Shown one piece after another: positions 37,453-50,998 of a DNA stretch of 64,000 bases. Source of the stretch: Candidatus Woesearchaeota archaeon (GTDB taxonomy: Archaea; Nanobdellota; Nanobdellia; SCGC-AAA011-G17; UBA489); assembly GCA_018302985.1 (NCBI GenBank), contig JAGVZA010000001.1, positions 10,919 to 74,918 on the forward strand. Reading direction: 5' to 3'. The translations under genes and the position numbers were made by a program. Each line of letters begins with the position of its first letter. The stretch's first letter is position 1. The notes beneath the pieces were generated by a model. That model was given only the letters and a program-made list of their open reading frames with translations. It was not told the DNA's origin and did no database searches.

Positions 37453-37941
37453 TTAAGAAACTTTGCCACAAATAACGTAAGCTCTTGTTGTAATAGATCC
37501 TGGACCCCATTGCTGACAGTACCATCCCCGTCTATCATCAGTAAATCGAGTTTGATGCATTTCTGTTCCCTGTGAATTTGCTTGACAACCTCCGCCAAGA
37601 ACTATATAACCGGGATCGCAATCAACTCGTGCTTCAGTGCCTGGTTGTGCAGCACTTTCTTTATACACAACTAAGTTAGGACTTAATTTCTCTGTAGACC
37701 AAGATAATGCAGATGCTACTGCAACATCACTCATTCCCCATCCGGCACTAGAAGGAATAGCCGCACATAAGGGATTTTGTGGATTAGCTGCGCAGTTCGG
37801 AGTAGCACCTTCAACTTCTCCGATAGTATGCCCCATAACTTGAGGATTATTGCTTCCATAGGCAACTACAATACTAACAGCAGAAATAACTAAGATAAGT
37901 AACCAAACATATTTTTTCTCAATAGTGATATTGATTTGCAT
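37453..37941 (-). CDS. surface protein with conserved N-terminal handle and a Cys-rich head (paralogue 3 of 3)
   Basis: MQINITIEKKYVWLLILVISAVSIVVAYGSNNPQVMGHTIGEVEG, followed by a unique 117-aa domain with 8 Cys. Confidence 0.65.
   Translation of the reverse strand: MQINITIEKKYVWLLILVISAVSIVVAYGSNNPQVMGHTIGEVEGATPNCAANPQNPLCAAIPSSAGWGMSDVAVASALSWSTEKLSPNLVVYKESAAQPGTEARVDCDPGYIVLGGGCQANSQGTEMHQTRFTDDRRGWYCQQWGPGSITTRAYVICGKVS
37811..37941 (-). repeat. 5' handle module, near-identical copy A
   Basis: Differs from 38861-38991 at about 12 of 131 aligned positions by eye. Similarity ends abruptly at the 3' boundary of the module. Confidence 0.85.
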
Positions 37942-37950
37942 TTTTCCCTC

Positions 37951-38493
37951 CTATGAACAAAATATTAACATATTAACATCTACGTTTCCAGTATAGGGGC
38001 GTACTTGGATATCCATTATTGTATAATGGAATGTGTCTGCATCTACAATAGTTCCCATAACAGGCACAAAAACTGGACCATACTCATCACTACTGCTCCA
38101 AGGCATTCTCTTGGCTGTTAAGAATACTTGATAGTTTGCATTAGGACAGGCAGGTGAAAACGTAAATTCTTGGCGAGCTTCAGCACCTTGAACAGAAACT
38201 GTTTGTGAAGCTATACGCATTTGTCTACCATTAAGACGTTGACTATCCCAAGCAATTCCAGCCCATCCAGCTACTACACCTAATCCCCAATTAGAATTAC
38301 GAGGACCAGTACAGACATTATCGCCAGAAATAAGTGGATTAGCACAAGTAGGAACAACACCTTCAATTTCTCCAAAGTTATGTCCCATAACTGGCGGATT
38401 GGTGCCTCCGTAAGCAACAACAAAGCCAACAGCTACAACTGCCAAAACCAAAAACCACAAATGTTTTTTCTCAATGTTAATATTAATTTGCAT
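37951..38493 (-). CDS. surface protein with conserved N-terminal handle and a distinct head (paralogue 2 of 3)
   Basis: MQININIEKKHLWFLVLAVVAVGFVVAYGGTNPPVMGHNFGEIEG, followed by an unrelated 135-aa domain. Confidence 0.65.
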   Translation of the reverse strand: MQININIEKKHLWFLVLAVVAVGFVVAYGGTNPPVMGHNFGEIEGVVPTCANPLISGDNVCTGPRNSNWGLGVVAGWAGIAWDSQRLNGRQMRIASQTVSVQGAEARQEFTFSPACPNANYQVFLTAKRMPWSSSDEYGPVFVPVMGTIVDADTFHYTIMDIQVRPYTGNVDVNMLIFCS

Positions 38494-38496
38494 CGT

Positions 38497-38991
38497 TTAT
38501 TTCTCCTTTAAGCAATAAAAAGTTATGCTACAACCAGGCACATCCGGACATGACGTGTCTCCAGCAAATGCTGCGCCACAAGTAGTGGACTGAACTGAAG
38601 TTAACTCATACCCCTGAGTCTGGCAATAGGCAGTAATTGCCCGCAAACAACCCTTATATCCTTGAAAACCACCGCGATCATTATTTCCTGTATAAATATT
38701 AGTATATTGTGCTAAACTCGAGATCTGAAAAGGAGCACTGGGTGTAAAAATAGTGTCTTGTGAACCATAAGTATAGCGTCGTCCTTCGATAAGTTGTTTG
38801 CCACTTAAATAAGTTGCAGCTTGTGTATTCATCACATCAATAACTTTCTGATCTACTCCATCAACTTCTCCGATAGTATGTCCCATAACTGGTGGATTAT
38901 TGCTTCCATAGGCAACTACAATGCCAACAGCAGAAATAACTAAGATAAGTAACCAAACATATTTCTTTTCAATGCTTATCTTGATTTCCAT
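38497..38991 (-). CDS. surface protein with conserved N-terminal handle and a distinct head (paralogue 1 of 3)
   Basis: MEIKISIEKKYVWLLILVISAVGIVVAYGSNNPPVMGHTIGEVDG, followed by an unrelated 119-aa Cys-containing domain. Its start overlaps the upstream gene by 16 nt. Confidence 0.65.
   Translation of the reverse strand: MEIKISIEKKYVWLLILVISAVGIVVAYGSNNPPVMGHTIGEVDGVDQKVIDVMNTQAATYLSGKQLIEGRRYTYGSQDTIFTPSAPFQISSLAQYTNIYTGNNDRGGFQGYKGCLRAITAYCQTQGYELTSVQSTTCGAAFAGDTSCPDVPGCSITFYCLKEK
38861..38991 (-). repeat. 5' handle module, near-identical copy B
   Basis: See copy A (37811-37941). The intervening paralogue (38363-38493) is clearly more diverged. Confidence 0.85.
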
Positions 38992-40622
38992 TGCACACCT
39001 CTCCTAAATGAGTAGAAGATTATTAATAAAACTATGGTTATTAAAAAGTTAGACCAAGTAAAGACTGGGAAGTTTTCTCCTTCTTGAGAATTGACACAAG
39101 TTTCAGTAAGTGGATATCCTGCACAGCTGCAATGAGTTCCCCCTTGAAGAACAGTACAAGTACGAGTTTGTTGTCCACCAACACAAGGAGACAAAGGACG
39201 ATTATAAGTACAAGTAGGCGATCTGCAAGTAAATGCTCCGCGGTCGCAAACAGTTTGTACTCCATTAGCGTTGCTGCAAGGTAAAGGATTACTCAAGACT
39301 TTGCAACCACTAGGTCCAGTTAAACAGAAGTAGGATTGTGTAAGATCACTTTGACAAACCATAAATGTTGCAGGTACTCCTCTACATAAAGGATGATCTT
39401 CACAACTTTGTCCATTAGTATTGATTTCTCGTCTGCAAGTAGAAGAACAACCATCACCACTGACAGTATTATTATCGTCGCAGCGTTCATTATTGCTGCC
39501 TTCTACAATGCCATTGCCACATTGTGCTGCTGGTTGTGATTGAACAGTAAGTAAAGCATTTTGTGGAGACGCAGTTTGTACTTGTGAACTGCCTCCTGTG
39601 ACAGTGACTTGGAAATAGTAATGATTAGATCCATTCAAGAAATATTCTGTAATCCAAGTACTCGATGCTGTAGCACTAGTACTATTAGCAAAAGTTGCTG
39701 GTTGAGGTGAGGATAAAACTAAATTATTATTGTCTCTGTCAAAGACTTGGAAGTGAGCGATTTTACCTTGACAGTCAGCGCTGCCAGTAACAGTTAAGTC
39801 TACAGATTCTCCTTCTAAGGCGCTTGTTCTGCTCCAACTAGCTGCTAGATTGCTACATTGTTGGCGATAAGGACAATTATCATCTGCAACAAGAACAGAA
39901 CAGGAATCATTAATAAATAAATCACAGACATCTCCAGCACCATCACCATCAGTGTCAAGCTGGTCAGCATTAACAGTAGTCCTGCAATTATCAGCACATT
40001 GAAGAAGGTTTGAATGTACTCTTGGATCACAAGGAGTGTTAACTAAACTGCCTAATCCAATATCAAAGACACCATCAGTATCAGTATCAGGTCTATACTG
40101 TCCTCCACCAGAAACAGTACCGTCAGAGCAACACAAGTCAACAGAATAAATACCACAATCAGATACATGAGCATTCGTTTCCGCAGAAAGTGAAGCTACA
40201 CATCTCCAGGTAGGTCCTAAAGTAGAGCATTGTCCTTGTGGTTGTGTGCTGCAAGTGATATTGCCAAAACAAGCACGCTGTTGGTAAGCAGTAAATTCTT
40301 TCTTTTCAACATGAGCATTAACAGTATCAGATAAACGAAGAACAACATTGGTGCCTGCAGTATTACATTGTCGACTTGTTGCTCCTTGACCATCCCAACA
40401 AACAGCATAAGTATATTGGGTTTGAGTTGCTAAAGCTGCATGAGCATTGTTAGATCCAGAAACACGAAAAAGAATCTTGTCTGTAGAACATTGATCACTG
40501 ATAGCTTGTCCTGTAGGGGAAGATATTTCGAAGGGAGCATCAAGATCATAAACAGAACTGGCTAAATAACCAGCTAAGAGTACTAAAAAAACTGGTCCTA
40601 AGACTCTGAGCTCAACACGCAT
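38976..40622 (-). CDS. large Cys-rich secreted protein with a C-terminal TM anchor
   Basis: ATG 40622 (MRVELRVLGPVFLVLLAG signal). Three ~45-aa repeats each carrying NAH(A/V). TSP3-like DTDTDGVFD and DTDGDGAGDVCD. CGNGIVEGSNNERCDDNNTVSGDGCSSTC Cys-rich repeat. Terminal TM segment plus RRG. Confidence 0.75.
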   Translation of the reverse strand: MRVELRVLGPVFLVLLAGYLASSVYDLDAPFEISSPTGQAISDQCSTDKILFRVSGSNNAHAALATQTQYTYAVCWDGQGATSRQCNTAGTNVVLRLSDTVNAHVEKKEFTAYQQRACFGNITCSTQPQGQCSTLGPTWRCVASLSAETNAHVSDCGIYSVDLCCSDGTVSGGGQYRPDTDTDGVFDIGLGSLVNTPCDPRVHSNLLQCADNCRTTVNADQLDTDGDGAGDVCDLFINDSCSVLVADDNCPYRQQCSNLAASWSRTSALEGESVDLTVTGSADCQGKIAHFQVFDRDNNNLVLSSPQPATFANSTSATASSTWITEYFLNGSNHYYFQVTVTGGSSQVQTASPQNALLTVQSQPAAQCGNGIVEGSNNERCDDNNTVSGDGCSSTCRREINTNGQSCEDHPLCRGVPATFMVCQSDLTQSYFCLTGPSGCKVLSNPLPCSNANGVQTVCDRGAFTCRSPTCTYNRPLSPCVGGQQTRTCTVLQGGTHCSCAGYPLTETCVNSQEGENFPVFTWSNFLITIVLLIIFYSFRRGVQWKSR

Positions 40623-45312: not shown

Positions 45313-45627
45313 ATGACATTACAAAAAAGATTAGAGCAATTGACTAAAGAAGTAACAGACATAGTAAGATCTAGTGAAGATCATCCAACAAGAGATCAAA
45401 TTATTGAAGAAATGGTAGAGATGCATGGCGCGGTATTCGCAGTTCCTGCCGCTGAGACTCCAATTGCAGTATTCAAAAGACAAGTCGCATCTACAATTCG
45501 TAATCTTGTTGCGCAAACAATTTTTCAAGAATATGAAATGCATGGGAGTAAAGTATACAGCATGCGATCAATACAGCAGTCTAGTACAGCACAACCAGTT
45601 ACAGGAGAAACATATAGAACACCATGA
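45313..45627 (+). CDS. hypothetical protein inserted between rpl18e and rpl13
   Basis: 104-aa ORF packed tightly (1-nt gap upstream, 4-nt overlap downstream). No confident motif; a winged-helix fold is only a guess. Confidence 0.5.
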   Translation: MTLQKRLEQLTKEVTDIVRSSEDHPTRDQIIEEMVEMHGAVFAVPAAETPIAVFKRQVASTIRNLVAQTIFQEYEMHGSKVYSMRSIQQSSTAQPVTGETYRTP

Positions 45628-46055
45628 TCATCGACGCAACAGATTTAATCTTAGGAAGAATGGCAGCACAAGTAGCAAAGCGTGCAATCCTAGGTGAAGA
45701 AATCTCAATTATCAATGCGGAAAAAGCTGTTATCACAGGAGATAGAAAAGGCGTTCTAGAAAAATACAGACATCGTGCAGTCTATCAAGGTCAACCAAAA
45801 ACAGGTCCGTTCTTCTTTACAAAAGAAAACTTGTTTGTAAAGCGTGCTATTCGAGGTATGGTTCCTCATAAAAGGCCAAAGGGAAGAGACGCGCTCAAAA
45901 GAATTAAATGTTATATCGGTGTTCCAGATGAATTCAAGGATAAAAAGACAGAAACATTGTCCGGTGTCCACGTCAGTAAAATGCAAAATCTTAAATACAT
46001 TTCAGTGAAAGAAATATGTCACCTCTTAGGTCGAAAAGATCCTCGTGAACAATGA
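45624..46055 (+). CDS. rpl13: 50S ribosomal protein L13
   Basis: [19 protein letters not shown].. N terminus; 143 aa. Confidence 0.93.
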
Positions 46056-46453
46056 GTAAAGTAACACACACCTCTGGAAAGCGAAAGCGTGCCATAGCGC
46101 GTGCTACCATAGCTGAAGGAAAAGGTATAGTTCGCATTAACCATCAACTCTTAGAAACTTACGAGCCAAGAATGGCGAGAATGCGCATCATGGAACCGCT
46201 TATGTTGGGTGCTGAAATTGCGAAAAAAGTAGATATTGACGTCGATGTTATTGGTGGCGGCCAGCAAGGACAAGCTGACGCGGTGCGTCTTGCGATCGCA
46301 AAAGGATTAGTGCAATTCTCAAAGAGCAAGCAATTAAGACAAGACTTTTTACAATATGATAGAAACCTTTTAGTAGCCGATGTAAGGCGCAACGAACCTC
46401 ATAAACCGAACGATTCTAAGCCACGTGCAGCCAGACAGAAGAGCTATCGCTGA
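46052..46453 (+). CDS. rps9: 30S ribosomal protein S9
   Basis: [12 protein letters not shown].., [20 protein letters not shown]-terminal RQKSYR. Confidence 0.93.
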
Positions 46454-47946
46454 ACAGTAGTAACAAATTTATTTTTTTGTAATTTGTATTTACGATTATT
46501 ATTTCCGATTAAATGCATAAATCCTAAGTGTTCCAAATTATTTTCTTTGCGAACTCTTTTAATTACAGAATCACTTACTCCAACTTCTTTACGTATCTCA
46601 GAAAATTTAACTATAGAATTTTCTTTGTAGATCTGAATAATTCGTTGGATTTTTTCTTCAGGTATTTTACATAAGGACTTATTACTCTTCTTGATTTTAT
46701 ATTTTTTACAGATTCGAGTAATAGTAGCTTCATGAACTTGAAAATGTTCAGCTAGTTTTTTATGAGATAAATGTAAATTATTACGAGCAAAATCTGCAAT
46801 TTCTTTGCGAAGAGGCTCTGGTGTTGGTTTTTTAGCTCTTTTTCCAAGATCATTAGCTCGTAAAACTCTATTGACTTTTATAGGACTTATTCCTAATTGT
46901 TCAGCAATAGTTACTGTTCTCGTTACTCCAGCATTATAAAGTTCTACAATTTTAGCAATCTTTTCCTGAGGAATTCTGTGTGGAATATACTCTCCTTTAG
47001 GTCTAAAATAAGGTGTTTCATCACGAATATTTGGATATTGTTTCATCATTGTGCAAAATTTAGCATATTTTTCATGTGATAAAGTCATTAATTGCTGTAG
47101 AAGAAGTTGAATATTATTTTTTCGTTTAGATATGACTAATTTATCTCCAGGATATTTGATACTGTCTACTTCTAATTTTTTAAGAGATTGATAATAGATT
47201 TCTTTTTCATCTTCTTTAGAAACAGATATATGAACACGATACTTTTTATCCGTTTTTGATAACTCTACACAACCCTCTCCAGCAATAATACCCCTCATAA
47301 ATCCCCTAATAAGTTCTTTATCAAAATTTAAAAGCTTTTCATAAGTAATTTTCTTGATAAAATGTTTGAGAATGTCACTAAAAAGTTTATTTTTATACTC
47401 CAGAACTAGCGTACCATAGTCATGGAATGACAATATTTTATTTTGTGTATAGTTTTCATTAACATAGGTAACTTTCTTTGGATAGGACTTTTCAAGAGAT
47501 GTTTTTGTTCTTTGCAGCCAATGATTGACAGCTTTAGTTTCAACTTGCTCTCTGTAGGTTTGATCTACAGGTTCATTAATGTTCAGCTTAATACTCCATC
47601 GCCAAGTGTCATAGGGCAGATTAAAGACATCAGTAAACCATTGCATAACTTGATTGATAATACAATATTCATGATTGGGAAAAGAAAGATTTCCATTAGG
47701 GGTTTTACCCATTTCAGCTTGTAAAAGGCCTAAAACTTCAAAAGTTTCTTCAGTTTGAGGAATATATCGAGGTAGAGTATAGGAGTACTCTTGAAATCCT
47801 GTACCGCTAGGAGCAATAGCTTCTAGGTGATAATTAACCATAATATGGCTTTCATCAAGTATAATATTGAGAGGGTACTCTACTCCACCTTCAGTCACGA
47901 TACTTTCAGGCAGATATTCCAAGACATCTAGATATTGTTGTTGCAT
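46444..47946 (-). CDS. LAGLIDADG-like double-motif protein fused to three C-terminal HTH modules
   Basis: Motifs [12 protein letters not shown] and [15 protein letters not shown], then three HTH-like repeats ([19 protein letters not shown]; [20 protein letters not shown]; [20 protein letters not shown]). The 3' end overlaps the rps9 stop region by 10 nt. Confidence 0.6.
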
Positions 47947-47982
47947 CCATCAAAAATCATGCAGATATTTAAATACCTTTCA

Positions 47983-48002
47983 GGGGTCTTTGAGAAGTAA
48001 AC
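47983..48002. repeat. left copy of a perfect 20-bp inverted repeat (GGGGTCTTTGAGAAGTAAAC)
   Basis: Exact reverse complement of 50519-50538. On the minus strand it is followed after 7 nt by TATTTAAATA and then the ATG at 47946. Confidence 0.9.
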
Positions 48003-48108
48003 TACTTTTCTAATATCTATTTAGAAGTTTTCCGGAATTTTCGGAAGAGTTCCGGATTGTTTTGAGAAATTTTTCTATATTTAATATGTAGTTGAGGGGG
48101 AAAGGATA

Positions 48109-48519
48109 TTAAGATTTTTTTCTAGAGAATATTTTACTCGGTCTTTTTTGAGGTCTACTCTTGCGATAAATCCAATAGACAACAAGTCCAATTAAAATCC
48201 AGAAAAGTATTGTTATGGGATGAAACTTAGATCCTTGTATCCCTTCTACAAATCCTTTTAAAGCAGCTATGACAATAAAAATGAGAAAGAGTATTTTTAA
48301 TAGTCGAGAAAATCTGCCTTTTGCTAAGGGATATCTTCCTTCTTCATGAGTGCATGCCCAGATTAACGCAATGATCCAGCCTATAATCGTCCAGCCTAAA
48401 GTAAAATTTAATACAAATATTGCCAAAGTATTCTTTTTTGCTCTGGAATAGCCTATAATAGTTGGAAGCAAATATATACCTAGTAAAAACAGTGATTGAA
48501 TAATTAATTCTTCATTCAT
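48109..48519 (-). CDS. membrane protein with a superinfection-immunity-like (Imm_superinfect) domain
   Basis: YLLPTIIGYSRAKKNTLAIFVLNFTLGWTIIGWIIALIWA matches the family signature (..lPsiiA..r...n..aIf.lN...GWT..GW..AliWA), plus two further TM segments. Confidence 0.65.
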   Translation of the reverse strand: MNEELIIQSLFLLGIYLLPTIIGYSRAKKNTLAIFVLNFTLGWTIIGWIIALIWACTHEEGRYPLAKGRFSRLLKILFLIFIVIAALKGFVEGIQGSKFHPITILFWILIGLVVYWIYRKSRPQKRPSKIFSRKKS

Positions 48520-49100
48520 CGGTTCCCTTCGTCACATAAAACATTGTCTTTATTGCATAACCCATTAATAAAGTAAGGTTTACCAGCTTCCCATCTGTCA
48601 TAATTGTAATTTTTACCAATAGGTCCCCATTTAAAATAATCACAAGCACCAGCTTTAACTAAAGTTTGAGAAGGGTTAACAATCACTTGAAAGGTATCGA
48701 GAAGCTTATTTTGTTTATACAATCCTATATTAGCTATAAGTCCTGCACCTTCCAAATCTTCTTTTCCTATATTACACACATCTCCTATAAGATAATAGTG
48801 TATAATAGGTTCTTGGTTTAACAGTTTGAATGCTTGTGCGTTAGGCATCTCATCGATAATATTAACATTTTTAACTTCTAGAAAGTCCATATAACTCTTA
48901 AGTTGTTTATTTTGTGTGTTTAAGACGTCTGTTTCTTGTTTTAATTCTACGGGCGATTTTACGCTTGGTTTAATCTCTTCAGAAATTGGTTGTTGACTAG
49001 AAGAGTTTGAAAAAAGATCTTGTACTCCGTTAAAAATAAGAAAAAGAGCAAATATAGTTCCTATAACAAACCAAAATCCTTTTTTCTTTTCTTTACTCAT
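48516..49100 (-). CDS. membrane-anchored hypothetical protein
   Basis: ATG 49100 (MSKEKKKGFWFVIGTIFALFLIF). ATGA overlap with the downstream gene. Confidence 0.5.
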   Translation of the reverse strand: MSKEKKKGFWFVIGTIFALFLIFNGVQDLFSNSSSQQPISEEIKPSVKSPVELKQETDVLNTQNKQLKSYMDFLEVKNVNIIDEMPNAQAFKLLNQEPIIHYYLIGDVCNIGKEDLEGAGLIANIGLYKQNKLLDTFQVIVNPSQTLVKAGACDYFKWGPIGKNYNYDRWEAGKPYFINGLCNKDNVLCDEGNR

Positions 49101-49845
49101 TCTGTCTAACGCTTCCTCTACAATCTGCAACTTCATCAGTAGCGACAAGGCCTTTTAGTTTATCACAATATTTTTCATTTTGCCATTCAGTAGCGAGTTG
49201 AAACCAACAATTGAATAGTTTCTCTTTATCTTGAACCTTTTCACAATATTCAGGCAAATTATAAGTTTTTGCATATTCTTTTTCACATTCATCAGTCCAT
49301 TTATAGACTAAAGGAGCTTTAAAATATTGAGGAGGGTATTTTGCCTTACATTCTTCAAAAAACTGTTCCCAAGGAACTGCTTTTGGTGCTTGTTTCTTTT
49401 CTACTGCCATGAGCACTCTTTCTTCTTTCACACGTGGATCAGAAATAGTAATATCCCATTCTCCATCTGCTTTAATGTCAAGAATATAATCATCTTGATA
49501 GTCGATAGTGACTAATTTCTCACCAGAGTATTTGCCTATATCATTTACTAATAAACTAATCCGATCGCCTTGGCTATCTAGTAACCAAATAGCAAAATTA
49601 GCTCTTCCACCATGCAACATTTTGAACTTTAAAAGACCTGGTGTTGCATGAAAGAAATCTGATACTTTGTCCCCTCTACCTCTAAAAACAATAGACTGAA
49701 AAGTTGCTTCTGTTGCTTGTTGTTTTTGCGAATTGTCTCCTAGATTTTTACTATCTTGAACGATTTGTTGATTATTTACTGGGGTAGTATTACAAGCGGA
49801 AATAAAAAAAACAGTTATTAAAATTAAAAGATAACTTTTTTTCAT
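49093..49845 (-). CDS. secreted protein with a lipobox-like signal (ISAC) and a Cys-rich C terminus
   Basis: MKKSYLLILITVFFISACNTT signal peptide; 250 aa. Confidence 0.55.
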   Translation of the reverse strand: MKKSYLLILITVFFISACNTTPVNNQQIVQDSKNLGDNSQKQQATEATFQSIVFRGRGDKVSDFFHATPGLLKFKMLHGGRANFAIWLLDSQGDRISLLVNDIGKYSGEKLVTIDYQDDYILDIKADGEWDITISDPRVKEERVLMAVEKKQAPKAVPWEQFFEECKAKYPPQYFKAPLVYKWTDECEKEYAKTYNLPEYCEKVQDKEKLFNCWFQLATEWQNEKYCDKLKGLVATDEVADCRGSVRQNE

Positions 49846-49846
49846 T

Positions 49847-50173
49847 TTAACGCTCCTTCCTAATAAGAGCCATTAATCCACCAACTAATAAAAGTGCACC
49901 TGGAATTATATAGAAAGCACTAATGCTAATTACTCCACAAACTGCTGCAATAGTCATAAACCAGCCAGCCATTTTAGTTTTATGTTTAACAATAGAAGCA
50001 CCAATAATTCCTAAAATCGAAAAAAGAATTGCTGAAAACCCAAGCCAAAGGACTTCGTTCCCCATACCAAATGCAGCACTTACTCCTCCAAAGAGTAAAC
50101 TCAGTAAACCAAAGAAAATGCCAAAAACACCTCCGATAAGTCCTAAGGTGAATTCTGCAGTTCGTTTTATCAT
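49847..50173 (-). CDS. small 3-TM membrane protein
   Basis: Gly-rich TM segments (LGLIGGVFGIFFGLLSLLFGG..). First gene of the four-gene minus-strand operon. Confidence 0.55.
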   Translation of the reverse strand: MIKRTAEFTLGLIGGVFGIFFGLLSLLFGGVSAAFGMGNEVLWLGFSAILFSILGIIGASIVKHKTKMAGWFMTIAAVCGVISISAFYIIPGALLLVGGLMALIRKER

Positions 50174-50219
50174 CCTAATCCCATAGTTCTTTCATTCTTT
50201 AGATCTATAAATCTATGCA

Positions 50220-50266
50220 ACAATATTGTGGAATATAGCTATATAAAGTTTTCTACAATATTGTGG
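50220..50266. promoter_or_regulatory. twin palindromic operators flanking a TATA box in a divergent promoter
   Basis: ACAATATTGTGG occurs at 50220-50231 and again at 50255-50266 (the core ACAATATTGT is self-complementary). ATATAAAG at 50241-50248 lies between them. The wHTH ATG is at 50268. Confidence 0.6.
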
Positions 50267-50267
50267 T

Positions 50268-50486
50268 ATGTCAAAAAGGACTATCCAAGAGGTAAGAAAG
50301 GTTATTCTTGAAGTTCTCAGTGATGGTAAAGAGCATGCTTATGGAGATATAGAAAGAAAAGCGAATACTAATTGGCAGACAGTAAGAGATCATTGTAAGG
50401 ATTTAGAGTTGTTTGGAGCTGTTGTTATTGCTGGTAATAAGGTGAAAATAACAAAGCAAGGACGAGAGATTTTAAAGAAGTTGTAG
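50268..50486 (+). CDS. small winged-helix DNA-binding protein
   Basis: 72 aa. VILEVLSDGKEHAYGDIERKANTNWQTVRDHCKDLELFGAV is wHTH-like. Confidence 0.6.
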   Translation: MSKRTIQEVRKVILEVLSDGKEHAYGDIERKANTNWQTVRDHCKDLELFGAVVIAGNKVKITKQGREILKKL

Positions 50487-50518
50487 TTATCTATATGAAT
50501 ATATATGTTCCAGTATCT

Positions 50519-50538
50519 GTTTACTTCTCAAAGACCCC
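50519..50538. repeat. right copy of the perfect 20-bp inverted repeat (GTTTACTTCTCAAAGACCCC)
   Basis: Followed after 7 nt by TATATAAAG, then GGAGGTGA and the ATG at 50596. Confidence 0.9.
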
Positions 50539-50595
50539 CATGAGATATATAAAGCCAAGTCAGTTCTTAGTTGTATCAACCCGGAGGTGACCTTT

Positions 50596-50712
50596 ATGGC
50601 GCTCAAAGTATTCAGATTACATCGTGAAAAAGGACCAGCCTATCCATTGGCTAAGGTCATCGGTGAAGACTTTATTATTATAGGCAAGGAAGAGCTGCTA
50701 GTCAAATCTTAG
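50596..50712 (+). CDS. 38-codon ORF (MALKVFRLHREKGPAYPLAKVIGEDFIIIGKEELLVKS), hypothetical
   Basis: Absent from the ORF track because it is under 60 aa. GGAGGTGA lies 5 nt upstream of the ATG, and a TATA box lies about 45 nt upstream. Confidence 0.35.
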   Translation: MALKVFRLHREKGPAYPLAKVIGEDFIIIGKEELLVKS

Positions 50713-50800
50713 TCGAACAGAGACTTTCCTGGGGGGTTGCTCTTCCCCTATCTTTTTCTAAAAAGAAACCTTTAAAAACCATATAAAAGTCAATGAATAT

Positions 50801-50998
50801 ATGATTATCCCTATTCGATGTTTCAGCTGTGGCCGCCCAGTAGCCCATCTCTGGGAAGCTTTTAATGAGCGAGCAGCCAAAGGCGAAGACAAAGGAAAAG
50901 TAATGGATGATCTAGGCTTGGAAAGATACTGTTGCCGAGCATTATTCTTAGGCCATGTTGACTTAATCGACGTTGCCTCCAAATTTAAGAAAGCATAA
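50801..50998 (+). CDS. rpoN: DNA-directed RNA polymerase subunit N (Rpb10)
   Basis: MIIPIRCFSCG...ERYCCR zinc-bundle motif; 65 aa. Confidence 0.95.
   Translation: MIIPIRCFSCGRPVAHLWEAFNERAAKGEDKGKVMDDLGLERYCCRALFLGHVDLIDVASKFKKA

Follow-up and report, generated by a model that had tools for sequence, protein, structure and literature searches.

The DNA analysed here, hereafter the window, is a stretch of 64,000 nucleotides (nt) of contig JAGVZA010000001.1 from a Candidatus Woesearchaeota archaeon. Its archaeal setting is apparent from an Archaea_SRP RNA, RpoN and a G+C content of ~37%. The closest named relatives are metagenome-assembled genomes of Candidatus Woesearchaeota/Nanoarchaeia, and proteins identical to those of the window are present on contigs of Rifle aquifer metagenomes. 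Inside the conserved L18e-L13-S9 ... RpoN gene cluster of this window lies a perfect inverted repeat of 20 bp, which encloses five genes. Each copy of the repeat stands just ahead of a predicted promoter that faces outward, on the left toward the gene of a 500-amino-acid (aa) protein with a LAGLIDADG fold and three helix-turn-helix (HTH) domains, and on the right toward an open reading frame (ORF) of 38 aa. This 20-bp element, the protein that may read it and the exchange of the genes between its two copies are the subject of the present work.

The inverted repeat and its putative promoters

The sequence GGGGTCTTTGAGAAGTAAAC occupies positions 47983–48002 of the plus strand and its exact reverse complement is found at 50519–50538, the two arms being 2,516 bp apart. 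Read toward the gene served, each copy is GTTTACTTCTCAAAGACCCC, which places the left element (47983–48002) on the minus strand and the right element (50519–50538) on the plus strand. The pair is the longest and strongest inverted repeat of the window. Allowing up to three mismatches, the 20-mer has two copies only in these 64 kb, and a scan at up to six mismatches returned, beyond these two, nothing but matches at chance level. Likewise, none of 100 dinucleotide-preserving shuffles of the window contained two or more matches. The sequence check, the mismatch scans and the shuffles thus bear out the perfect repeat reported in the initial annotation, and the inverted repeat is real and non-random. 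Similarity extends outward over 35 nt with 83% identity (47968–48002 against 50519–50553), so that the extended repeat takes in both TATA boxes.

In the left module, the TATA box TATTTAAATA (47966–47975, minus strand) is separated from the 20-mer by a purine-rich spacer of 7 nt, TGAAAGG (47976–47982, minus strand), which has the position of a transcription factor B recognition element (BRE) and may well be one. The core TTTAAAT begins 9 nt past the 20-mer and the ATG at 47946 follows 20 nt past the core, a geometry that fits a leaderless mRNA. The predicted target of this promoter is the gene of the 500-aa protein (46444–47946, minus strand), whose 3′ end overlaps by 10 nt the 3′ end of its conserved left-hand neighbour rpS9 (46052–46453, plus strand). 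The distal part of the module, referred to as 'type I' (48003–48058), contains a hairpin, TTCTAA-N7-TTAGAA, at 48008–48026 and, farther from the 20-mer, three TTCCGGA/TTCGGAA repeats with 10-nt phasing at 48030–48057 (TTCCGGAATT, TTCGGAAGAG and TTCCGGATTG). Since TTYCGRAA repeats phased by 10 nt also occur further upstream in many promoters of orthologous genes, they may constitute a second, more widely conserved binding array. Arrays of this kind were seen upstream of the orthologues in the related loci L044, L045, L050, L054 and L075.

In the right module, the 20-mer is followed by a 7-nt spacer, CATGAGA (50539–50545, plus strand), and by the TATA box TATATAAAG (50546–50554, plus strand), whose core TATAAAG again begins 9 nt past the 20-mer. 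The initial annotation had read this module, through the TATA box, GGAGGTGA and an ATG at 50596, into rpoN. The positions given for these signals were correct, as were those of the left TATA box and ATG, but the ATG at 50596 heads a 38-aa ORF (50596–50712, product MALKVFRLHREKGPAYPLAKVIGEDFIIIGKEELLVKS) with its own hairpin and T-run, and not rpoN. The ORF has a strong Shine-Dalgarno sequence, GGAGGTGA, at 50583–50590 (50583–50712 on the plus strand with the ORF), and the conserved GGGGGG..CCCC hairpin and T-run behind it (50731–50758, plus strand) look like a terminator. The conserved right-hand neighbour rpoN (RNA_pol_N; 50801–50998, plus strand) has TATA-like boxes of its own at 50771–50788, and hence is not obviously under the right copy. 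The 38-aa ORF showed no family match and, among the 38 related loci compared below, a single weak match, in L044. In that locus the weak homologue sits just upstream of the LAGLIDADG-HTH gene.

The genes enclosed by the two copies correspond to their first description as a four-gene membrane operon and a winged-helix (wHTH) gene. Those on the minus strand are an Imm_superinfect gene (48109–48519), two ORFs of 210 aa (48516–49148) and 250 aa (49093–49845), which have no Pfam match and one of which is lipoprotein-like, and a DUF4064 gene (49847–50173); the wHTH gene, of the HTH_45 type, lies on the plus strand (50268–50486). Two of the cassette proteins match phage protein families, one of these being 'immunity to superinfection', and relatives of the 250-aa protein were absent from the IMG/VR viral contigs. 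The control region of the wHTH gene (50220–50266, plus strand) carries the sequence ACAATATTGTGG twice, at 50220–50231 and 50255–50266, on either side of the wHTH TATA box (50240–50248), and nowhere else in the window does this sequence occur. Located in the divergent promoter region between the wHTH gene and the DUF4064 operon, the pair is probably the operator of the wHTH protein itself.

Conservation and reuse of the 20-bp element

A sister species from the same sample as the window (L039) has ribosomal genes 72–80% identical to those of the window, and the synonymous differences in the flanking genes amount to 0.55–0.66, near saturation. Its gene order is S9, the LAGLIDADG-HTH orthologue, a first copy of the element (C), a cassette, a second copy (B), the 38-aa ORF, a 3.4-kb block and RpoN. 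Copy C, from which the orthologue (499 aa, 54% identity) is read, matches the 20-mer at 18 of 20 positions; copy B, inverted with respect to C, matches at 19; and a third copy (A) is identical, the variant forms being GGGGTCCGTG.. and AGGG... Copy B reads into the 38-aa ORF, which is identical at 33 of 38 residues, with changes mostly at third positions. The L039 cassette is another matter: over 3.6 kb it contains genes for a 70-aa membrane protein, a DUF4352 protein, a 304-aa ORF, a nucleotidyltransferase and a 136-aa ORF, and no related pair was found between the cassette proteins of the window and those of L039. Homology ends at 48054, 52 nt inside the left copy, and resumes at 50497, 22 nt inside the right copy, which delimits in the window a strain-variable accessory cassette of five genes (48055–50496) with unrelated genes at the same position in L039. 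Because the L039 copies enclose unrelated genes, the 20-mers belong to the flanks and not to the cassette, and the alignments indicate that the inverted pair has been kept across species while its contents were replaced.

The agreement of the L039 copies with the 20-mer, at 18–20 of 20 positions against a proportion of synonymous differences of 0.55–0.66, points to conservation beyond the neutral expectation, that is, to a phylogenetic footprint. It should be weighed together with the left module, in which window and L039 are 98% identical over ~135 nt. Such a patch, between lineages otherwise ~28–38% different, would suit a repeat that has no present function of its own and was left behind by an inverted duplication or by gene conversion between paralogous promoters. 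The locus has indeed been rearranged, as the LAGLIDADG-HTH gene is inverted in the clade of the window relative to most relatives; in L039 a 'type I' module accompanies a second, distant LAGLIDADG paralogue beside rpoN; and mosaic contigs exist. Nevertheless, at the right copy the comparison of window and L039 yields a true footprint, in which the 20-mer (19 of 20 positions) and the TATA box (9 of 9) are kept whereas the spacer (4 of 7) and the following 22 nt of the leader (13 of 22) have diverged. Exact copies in six further unrelated contexts on two continents, with non-homologous flanks and rigid spacing, are also difficult to reconcile with a relic, and we consider this origin rather unlikely.

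These further copies came from an exact-match scan of 241 million metagenome records, which led to seven contigs besides the window, six with one copy and L039 with three (two mismatches at most being allowed). The exact 20-mer had no match in 185,579 species-representative genomes, which means that the source lineage is not represented in that set, and none in the IMG/VR viral contigs. The contigs with other copies resemble the window in G+C content and tetranucleotide usage and derive from at least two aquifer systems, comprising JGI contigs and ENA contigs labelled Hain; two of the JGI contigs are from the window's own samples or have neighbouring contig numbers. All of the 11 copies compared (two in the window, three in L039 and one each in L036, L037, L038, L040, L041 and L042) have the same layout, which read toward the gene consists of GTTTACTTCTCAAAGACCCC, a mostly purine-rich spacer of 7–9 nt and a TATA core T[TA]TAAA[TG]. 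The core begins 9 nt past the 20-mer in ten copies and 10 nt past it in L040, against a background frequency of 0.0009 per position over the window. In six copies the ATG stands 20 nt past the core, and in L040, where the core itself lies 1 nt further out, 21 nt past it; in these seven copies the spacing fits archaeal leaderless mRNAs and is compatible with initiation ~25 nt downstream of the TATA box. The two copies ahead of the 38-aa ORF have instead a 40-nt leader with GGAGGTGA. Spacers and all that lies beyond them vary between contexts, and hence the 20 nt perfectly repeated in the window coincide with the conserved core found across unrelated contexts.

As regards the genes behind these copies, LAGLIDADG_3 genes are found in L036 (frameshifted), L038 and L039, a TnpB-like gene (Cas12f1-like TNB plus OrfB_IS605) in L040, and in L042 a 93-aa gene followed in the same operon by an intein-bearing RadA. 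The initial annotation had recognized that the 20-mer might turn out to be a generic dispersed repeat of many unrelated contexts. Seven other metagenome contigs do carry it, but it is rare and, by the promoter predictions, always promoter-associated, and on these grounds it is no generic dispersed repeat.

The same set of copies bears on whether the 20-mer might belong to a small structured RNA or represent a solitary CRISPR-like repeat. It starts with GTTT, and TATA-like boxes lie ~20–27 nt upstream in several copies. However, Rfam searches, at gathering thresholds and at E ≤ 1, returned nothing relevant, single-strand folding of both modules on both strands was not significant (z-scores of −0.3 to −2.0), the flanks are not conserved between contexts and there is no repeat array, all of which makes an RNA element barely credible. 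Four other candidates were discarded after inspection by eye: archaeal origin recognition boxes, on account of a mismatch in the arrangement of G-run and dyad, of the single copies elsewhere and of the 2.5 kb of genes between the arms; a dif/Xer or integrase att site, given that the copies are inverted and not direct and that there is no integrase; a box C/D small RNA, for want of a box C; and coding constraint on the 20-mer, as flanks and reading frames vary between contexts.

The promoters of orthologous genes extend this picture to more distant relatives. In 38 related genomes the TATA box always precedes the ATG of the LAGLIDADG-HTH gene by ~20 nt, and directly upstream of it stands a lineage-specific, G+C-richer element with GAC[AC] repeats, 7-fold over background. 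Intermediate forms appear in the nearest relatives, namely ACGGACCCC-TGAAAGG-TATA in L043 and in copy C of L039, and GGACCCCC in L051. In L046 and L064, the genome's own lineage-specific element recurs in inverted form, together with its TATA box, in the promoter of a 387/388-aa HTH_3 gene, an antisense insert between rpS11 and rpoD (L046, 5336–6608; L064, 3040–4295 and 17193–17222), and L064 has a third copy. One and the same site is thereby found at several promoters per genome, two in the window and three in L039, with an own element at two or three promoters in L046 and L064. A sequence that differs between genomes and is common to promoters within a genome is what one would expect to see if a factor and its sites had diverged together, and can be read as the signature of a regulon.

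The LAGLIDADG-HTH protein as candidate factor

The 500-aa protein has more than 170 homologues. Its gene adjoins rpS9 in all 38 species-representative loci of Woesearchaeota/Nanoarchaeia retrieved (L043–L080); in 34 of these it has rpoN on its other side, the contigs of the remaining four ending first. It is co-directional with both neighbours in most related genomes, and inverted in the clade comprising the window, L039, L043, L044, L045 and L051. The ratio of non-synonymous to synonymous substitution rates relative to the L039 orthologue (0.24) indicates that the protein is under purifying selection. In its AlphaFold model (pLDDT 84.6) a double LAGLIDADG fold is followed by three C-terminal HTH domains (Pfam HTH_23, HTH_28 and HTH_7). 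Foldseek placed the LAGLIDADG fold closest to the intein endonucleases TliVMA and PI-SceI and to the N-domain of WhiA (3hyj_A, TMt 0.58), and also matched it to WhiA in RNA polymerase open (promoter) complexes (8dy7_I and 8dy9_I). The HTH region has weak matches to the HTH_7 domain of resolvases and invertases and to a phage 'DNA invertase' family. A family profile run against PDB sequences gave only weak HTH matches, no relatives of the family appeared in the IMG/VR viral contigs, and the literature on LAGLIDADG together with Woesearchaeota or DPANN, so far as it was accessible, does not appear to describe this family. A weak alignment across both motifs links it with the 349-aa LAGLIDADG_3 protein of L039, whose gene occupies the ancestral position directly upstream of rpoN. 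That gene belongs to the extra 3.4-kb block of L039 (9208–12586 in window orientation), between the 38-aa ORF and rpoN, where copy A stands ahead of a 122-aa gene and the 349-aa gene, accompanied by small zinc-ribbon and wHTH genes.

LAGLIDADG enzymes read sites of ~20 bp. Being present wherever the module is known, the LAGLIDADG-3xHTH protein would be the best local candidate for the reader of the 20-mer, as either its array of three HTH domains or its LAGLIDADG saddle could read ~20 bp. The wHTH protein of the cassette was also considered and is an unlikely binder; it is missing in L039, where the 20-mers are kept, and a separate pair of repeats, ACAATATTGTGG, flanks the TATA box of its gene. 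We propose that each 20-mer, located 7 nt ahead of a TATA box, serves as an operator or upstream activating site, with the promoters firing outward. The left promoter would produce a leaderless mRNA for the conserved LAGLIDADG-fold protein and the right one a short-leader mRNA for the conserved 38-aa protein. With an identical 20-bp site at both promoters, the two would be under the control of one sequence-specific DNA-binding factor. If this factor is the LAGLIDADG-3xHTH protein, it would be an autoregulator, by analogy with WhiA, in which the acidic residues are lost and which regulates its own gene, and with the homing endonuclease I-TevI, which represses its own promoter (PMC3384342).

These analogies have their limits. 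The 500-aa protein resembles WhiA/DUF199 in the succession of a double LAGLIDADG fold and HTH and in its residence at one genomic locus across a phylum, and of the features that would place it among WhiA-like proteins, the double fold with C-terminal HTH is present. Loss of the catalytic acidic residues is not observed: 23 family members show E78 (LLQAEMG) and E224 (IAGEG) without, or almost without, exception. It further differs from WhiA in being archaeal, in having three HTH domains and an extra N-terminal beta-rich region, and in showing no detectable sequence similarity. As in the autorepression by I-TevI (PMC3384342), a nuclease-family protein has at its own promoter a long specific site, although binding is here a proposal and I-TevI is a phage protein of the GIY-YIG family. 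A parallel for the site itself comes from archaea. Archaeal upstream activating or operator sites stand beside BRE/TATA, as do the Ptr2 sites of Methanocaldococcus jannaschii. The 20-mer shares with them a specific site just upstream of BRE/TATA, the fixed distance, the presence at more than one promoter and the occurrence at divergent promoters, and departs from them in being 20 bp long, asymmetric and not a short palindrome, and in serving mostly nuclease-type genes.

Exchange of the enclosed genes

Recombinants between the lineages are found among the metagenome contigs. In mosaic L010 a window-type LAGLIDADG-HTH gene with an exact 20-mer is joined to an L039-type cassette, the crossover lying between 47990 and 48032, so that L010, like L039, keeps the 20-mer with a different cassette. 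In L016 a different allele of the LAGLIDADG-HTH gene is joined to a window-type module and cassette, with the breakpoint 74 nt inside the coding sequence, and in L019 a window-type cassette is joined to an L039-type rpoN, with a crossover near the rpoN start. Since the crossovers fall in several conserved patches, and not in the 20-mer alone, ordinary homologous recombination fits better than a site-specific mechanism. Co-occurring lineages probably exchange the 2.4-kb island through homologous recombination within the conserved modules and flanks, which would be why the repeat appears to 'bracket' the cassette. Replacement (flexible) genomic islands are exchanged by homologous recombination in conserved flanks, and the present locus resembles them in its unrelated gene sets at one position between conserved flanks, in the co-occurrence of the lineages and in the mosaics. 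Unlike typical islands of this kind, it is tiny (2.4–3.6 kb), it lies within a ribosomal-protein/RNA-polymerase cluster and its flanks are inverted copies of one promoter module.

Exchange could also be driven by the protein, if the 20-mer were a recognition or cleavage site of the adjacent LAGLIDADG enzyme. Breaks at one or both copies would then stimulate gene conversion, in which the DNA of another cell replaces the cassette. The cassettes are wholly different between lineages, recombinants exist and the L010 crossover falls at 47990–48032; invariant acidic residues are present in both LAGLIDADG-like motifs, the ~20 bp read by LAGLIDADG enzymes agree with the length of the repeat, and paralogous and disrupted LAGLIDADG genes are found at the same locus (L039_349 and L015). 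The disrupted gene belongs to one strain (L015, 1–2514, ERZ28563694 scaffold_3266; ~47438 in the window) in which the LAGLIDADG-HTH gene is cut to 181 aa by an inserted restriction-modification pair, an N6_N4 methyltransferase with an SNase domain and RE_MjaI. The best fold matches, in addition, are PI-SceI-type intein endonucleases, the source of HO (PMC7282813). However, the 20-mer is intact beside its own LAGLIDADG gene in every genome seen, whereas a homing target would be split or altered in the allele that has the endonuclease gene, and other crossovers lie away from it, 74 nt inside the coding sequence in L016 and near the rpoN start in L019. Solitary copies at the promoters of unrelated genes have a rigid TATA spacing that is needless for cleavage, and the presence of the gene at the same locus in 34 of 34 genomes reaching rpoN makes it look like a fixed resident and not an active homing element. 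Cleavage at the 20-mer is in our view distinctly unlikely.

The known counterpart of such a process would be HO/MAT and the yeast WHO genes beside FBA1 (PMC7282813), with which the locus shares an intein-type LAGLIDADG fold with a DNA-binding tail beside a conserved housekeeping gene, replacement of the neighbouring DNA, there by gene conversion, and paralogues and broken copies at the locus. The differences are that no donor copies are known, that crossovers are not confined to the 20-mer and that the gene is at the locus in every related genome retrieved; cleavage, moreover, is here a proposal. A domesticated or semi-selfish HO/WHO-like endonuclease in the rpS9–rpoN gap, reading the 20-mer through its HTH array and LAGLIDADG saddle, nicking or cutting both copies and triggering replacement of the accessory (anti-virus or immunity) cassette from the DNA of neighbouring lineages, with its site doubling as an autoregulatory operator, seems to us no less doubtful than cleavage as such.

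Besides a shared operator, the initial annotation had offered two explanations for the bracketing, of which one was that the 20-mers are the terminal inverted repeats of a non-autonomous transposable element carrying the five-gene cassette. A perfect inverted 20-mer pair around a block of accessory or phage-like genes (Imm_superinfect, phrog_6780) is indeed what miniature inverted-repeat transposable elements and insertion sequences show at their ends; short contigs of several assemblies break within ~50 nt of either copy, and a TnpB-like gene follows the solitary copy in L040. Against a mobile element, a target-site duplication was sought and no direct repeat was found at either boundary (CCTTTCA versus CATGAGA at the 20-mer ends, TGCAGAT versus GCCAAGT at the 35-nt ends), and neither the cassette nor ~20 kb of its neighbours encode a recombinase or transposase domain. 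Homology breaks inside the repeats and not at their outer ends, and the copies stay with the flanks when the cargo changes, as in L039. No empty site devoid of the copies was found among the contigs compared, and on six of the seven other contigs the copies are solitary and not paired, the seventh, L039, being the syntenic locus with three copies. We regard a transposable element as very improbable.

The other explanation offered was that crossover at the 20-mers inverts the cassette, which would make it a DNA switch. The repeat is inverted, at least one inversion has taken place at the locus in evolution, and the 500-aa protein has the weak HTH_7 and phage 'DNA invertase' matches mentioned above. 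No serine or tyrosine recombinase domain is found, however, in the cassette or within the same ~20 kb, and the inverted orientation was not seen among 35 stretches fetched via exact protein look-ups, which are all collinear with the window (11, on contigs of five assemblies, span both copies and ~20 more span one copy), although consensus assemblies could hide a minority orientation. Furthermore, inversion would not switch the promoters, which are located beyond the ends of the segment and point away from it. Such a switch can be considered highly improbable.

The first explanation of the initial annotation, a shared operator co-regulating both outward units, is the one we favour, in view of the rigid distance to the TATA box in 11 of 11 copies, the conservation in L039 and the solitary copies at other promoters. 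Taken together, the data make it fairly probable, though far from certain, that the repeat represents a promoter-proximal regulatory element present once at each of two divergent promoters, which bound a small accessory island swapped by recombination. Several considerations weigh against this. Eight of the 11 copies came from an exact-match search, and the invariance of the 20 nt is therefore partly a matter of ascertainment, whereas the contrast with the variable spacers is not. With two copies in the 64 kb and few in 241 million metagenome records, any regulon must be very small; selfish-type nucleases make up most of the genes driven, a fact that a simple host-regulon model fails to account for; and 20 invariant, asymmetric bp are long for an ordinary operator. 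The promoter assignments derive from consensus and geometry only. The 98% identity at the left copy could be due to recent gene conversion rather than to selection, and the retention of E78 and E224, unlike in WhiA, could mean that the 500-aa protein may cut DNA rather than merely bind it.

Two copies of a regulatory element bounding an exchanged island would be a feature of a known kind, in which the particular 20-bp element and its candidate factor are undescribed. To our knowledge, promoter architecture and gene regulation in DPANN archaea have hardly been studied, and the 20-mer offers a sharply defined, testable cis-element, for which there is both a rigid promoter geometry and a plausible cognate factor. 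Binding of the protein to the site would provide an archaeal counterpart of the autoregulation of WhiA or I-TevI; cleavage of the site by it, a new, nuclease-driven mechanism of cassette exchange in an archaeon. A WhiA-like LAGLIDADG-HTH protein that keeps its acidic residues, encoded between rpS9 and rpoN, deserves study in itself, as does a very small accessory island in a ribosomal-protein/RNA-polymerase cluster with contents visibly swapped by co-occurring lineages.

Two further features of the window may be mentioned. Between L18e and L13 lies a 104-aa ORF without Pfam match (45313–45627, plus strand), which is missing in L039, where L18e abuts L13. At 37779–38992, three successive genes of ~162–180 aa share a repeated 5′ segment of ~135 nt with 72–90% identity, and form a small tandem paralogue family beside a DUF4215 protein.

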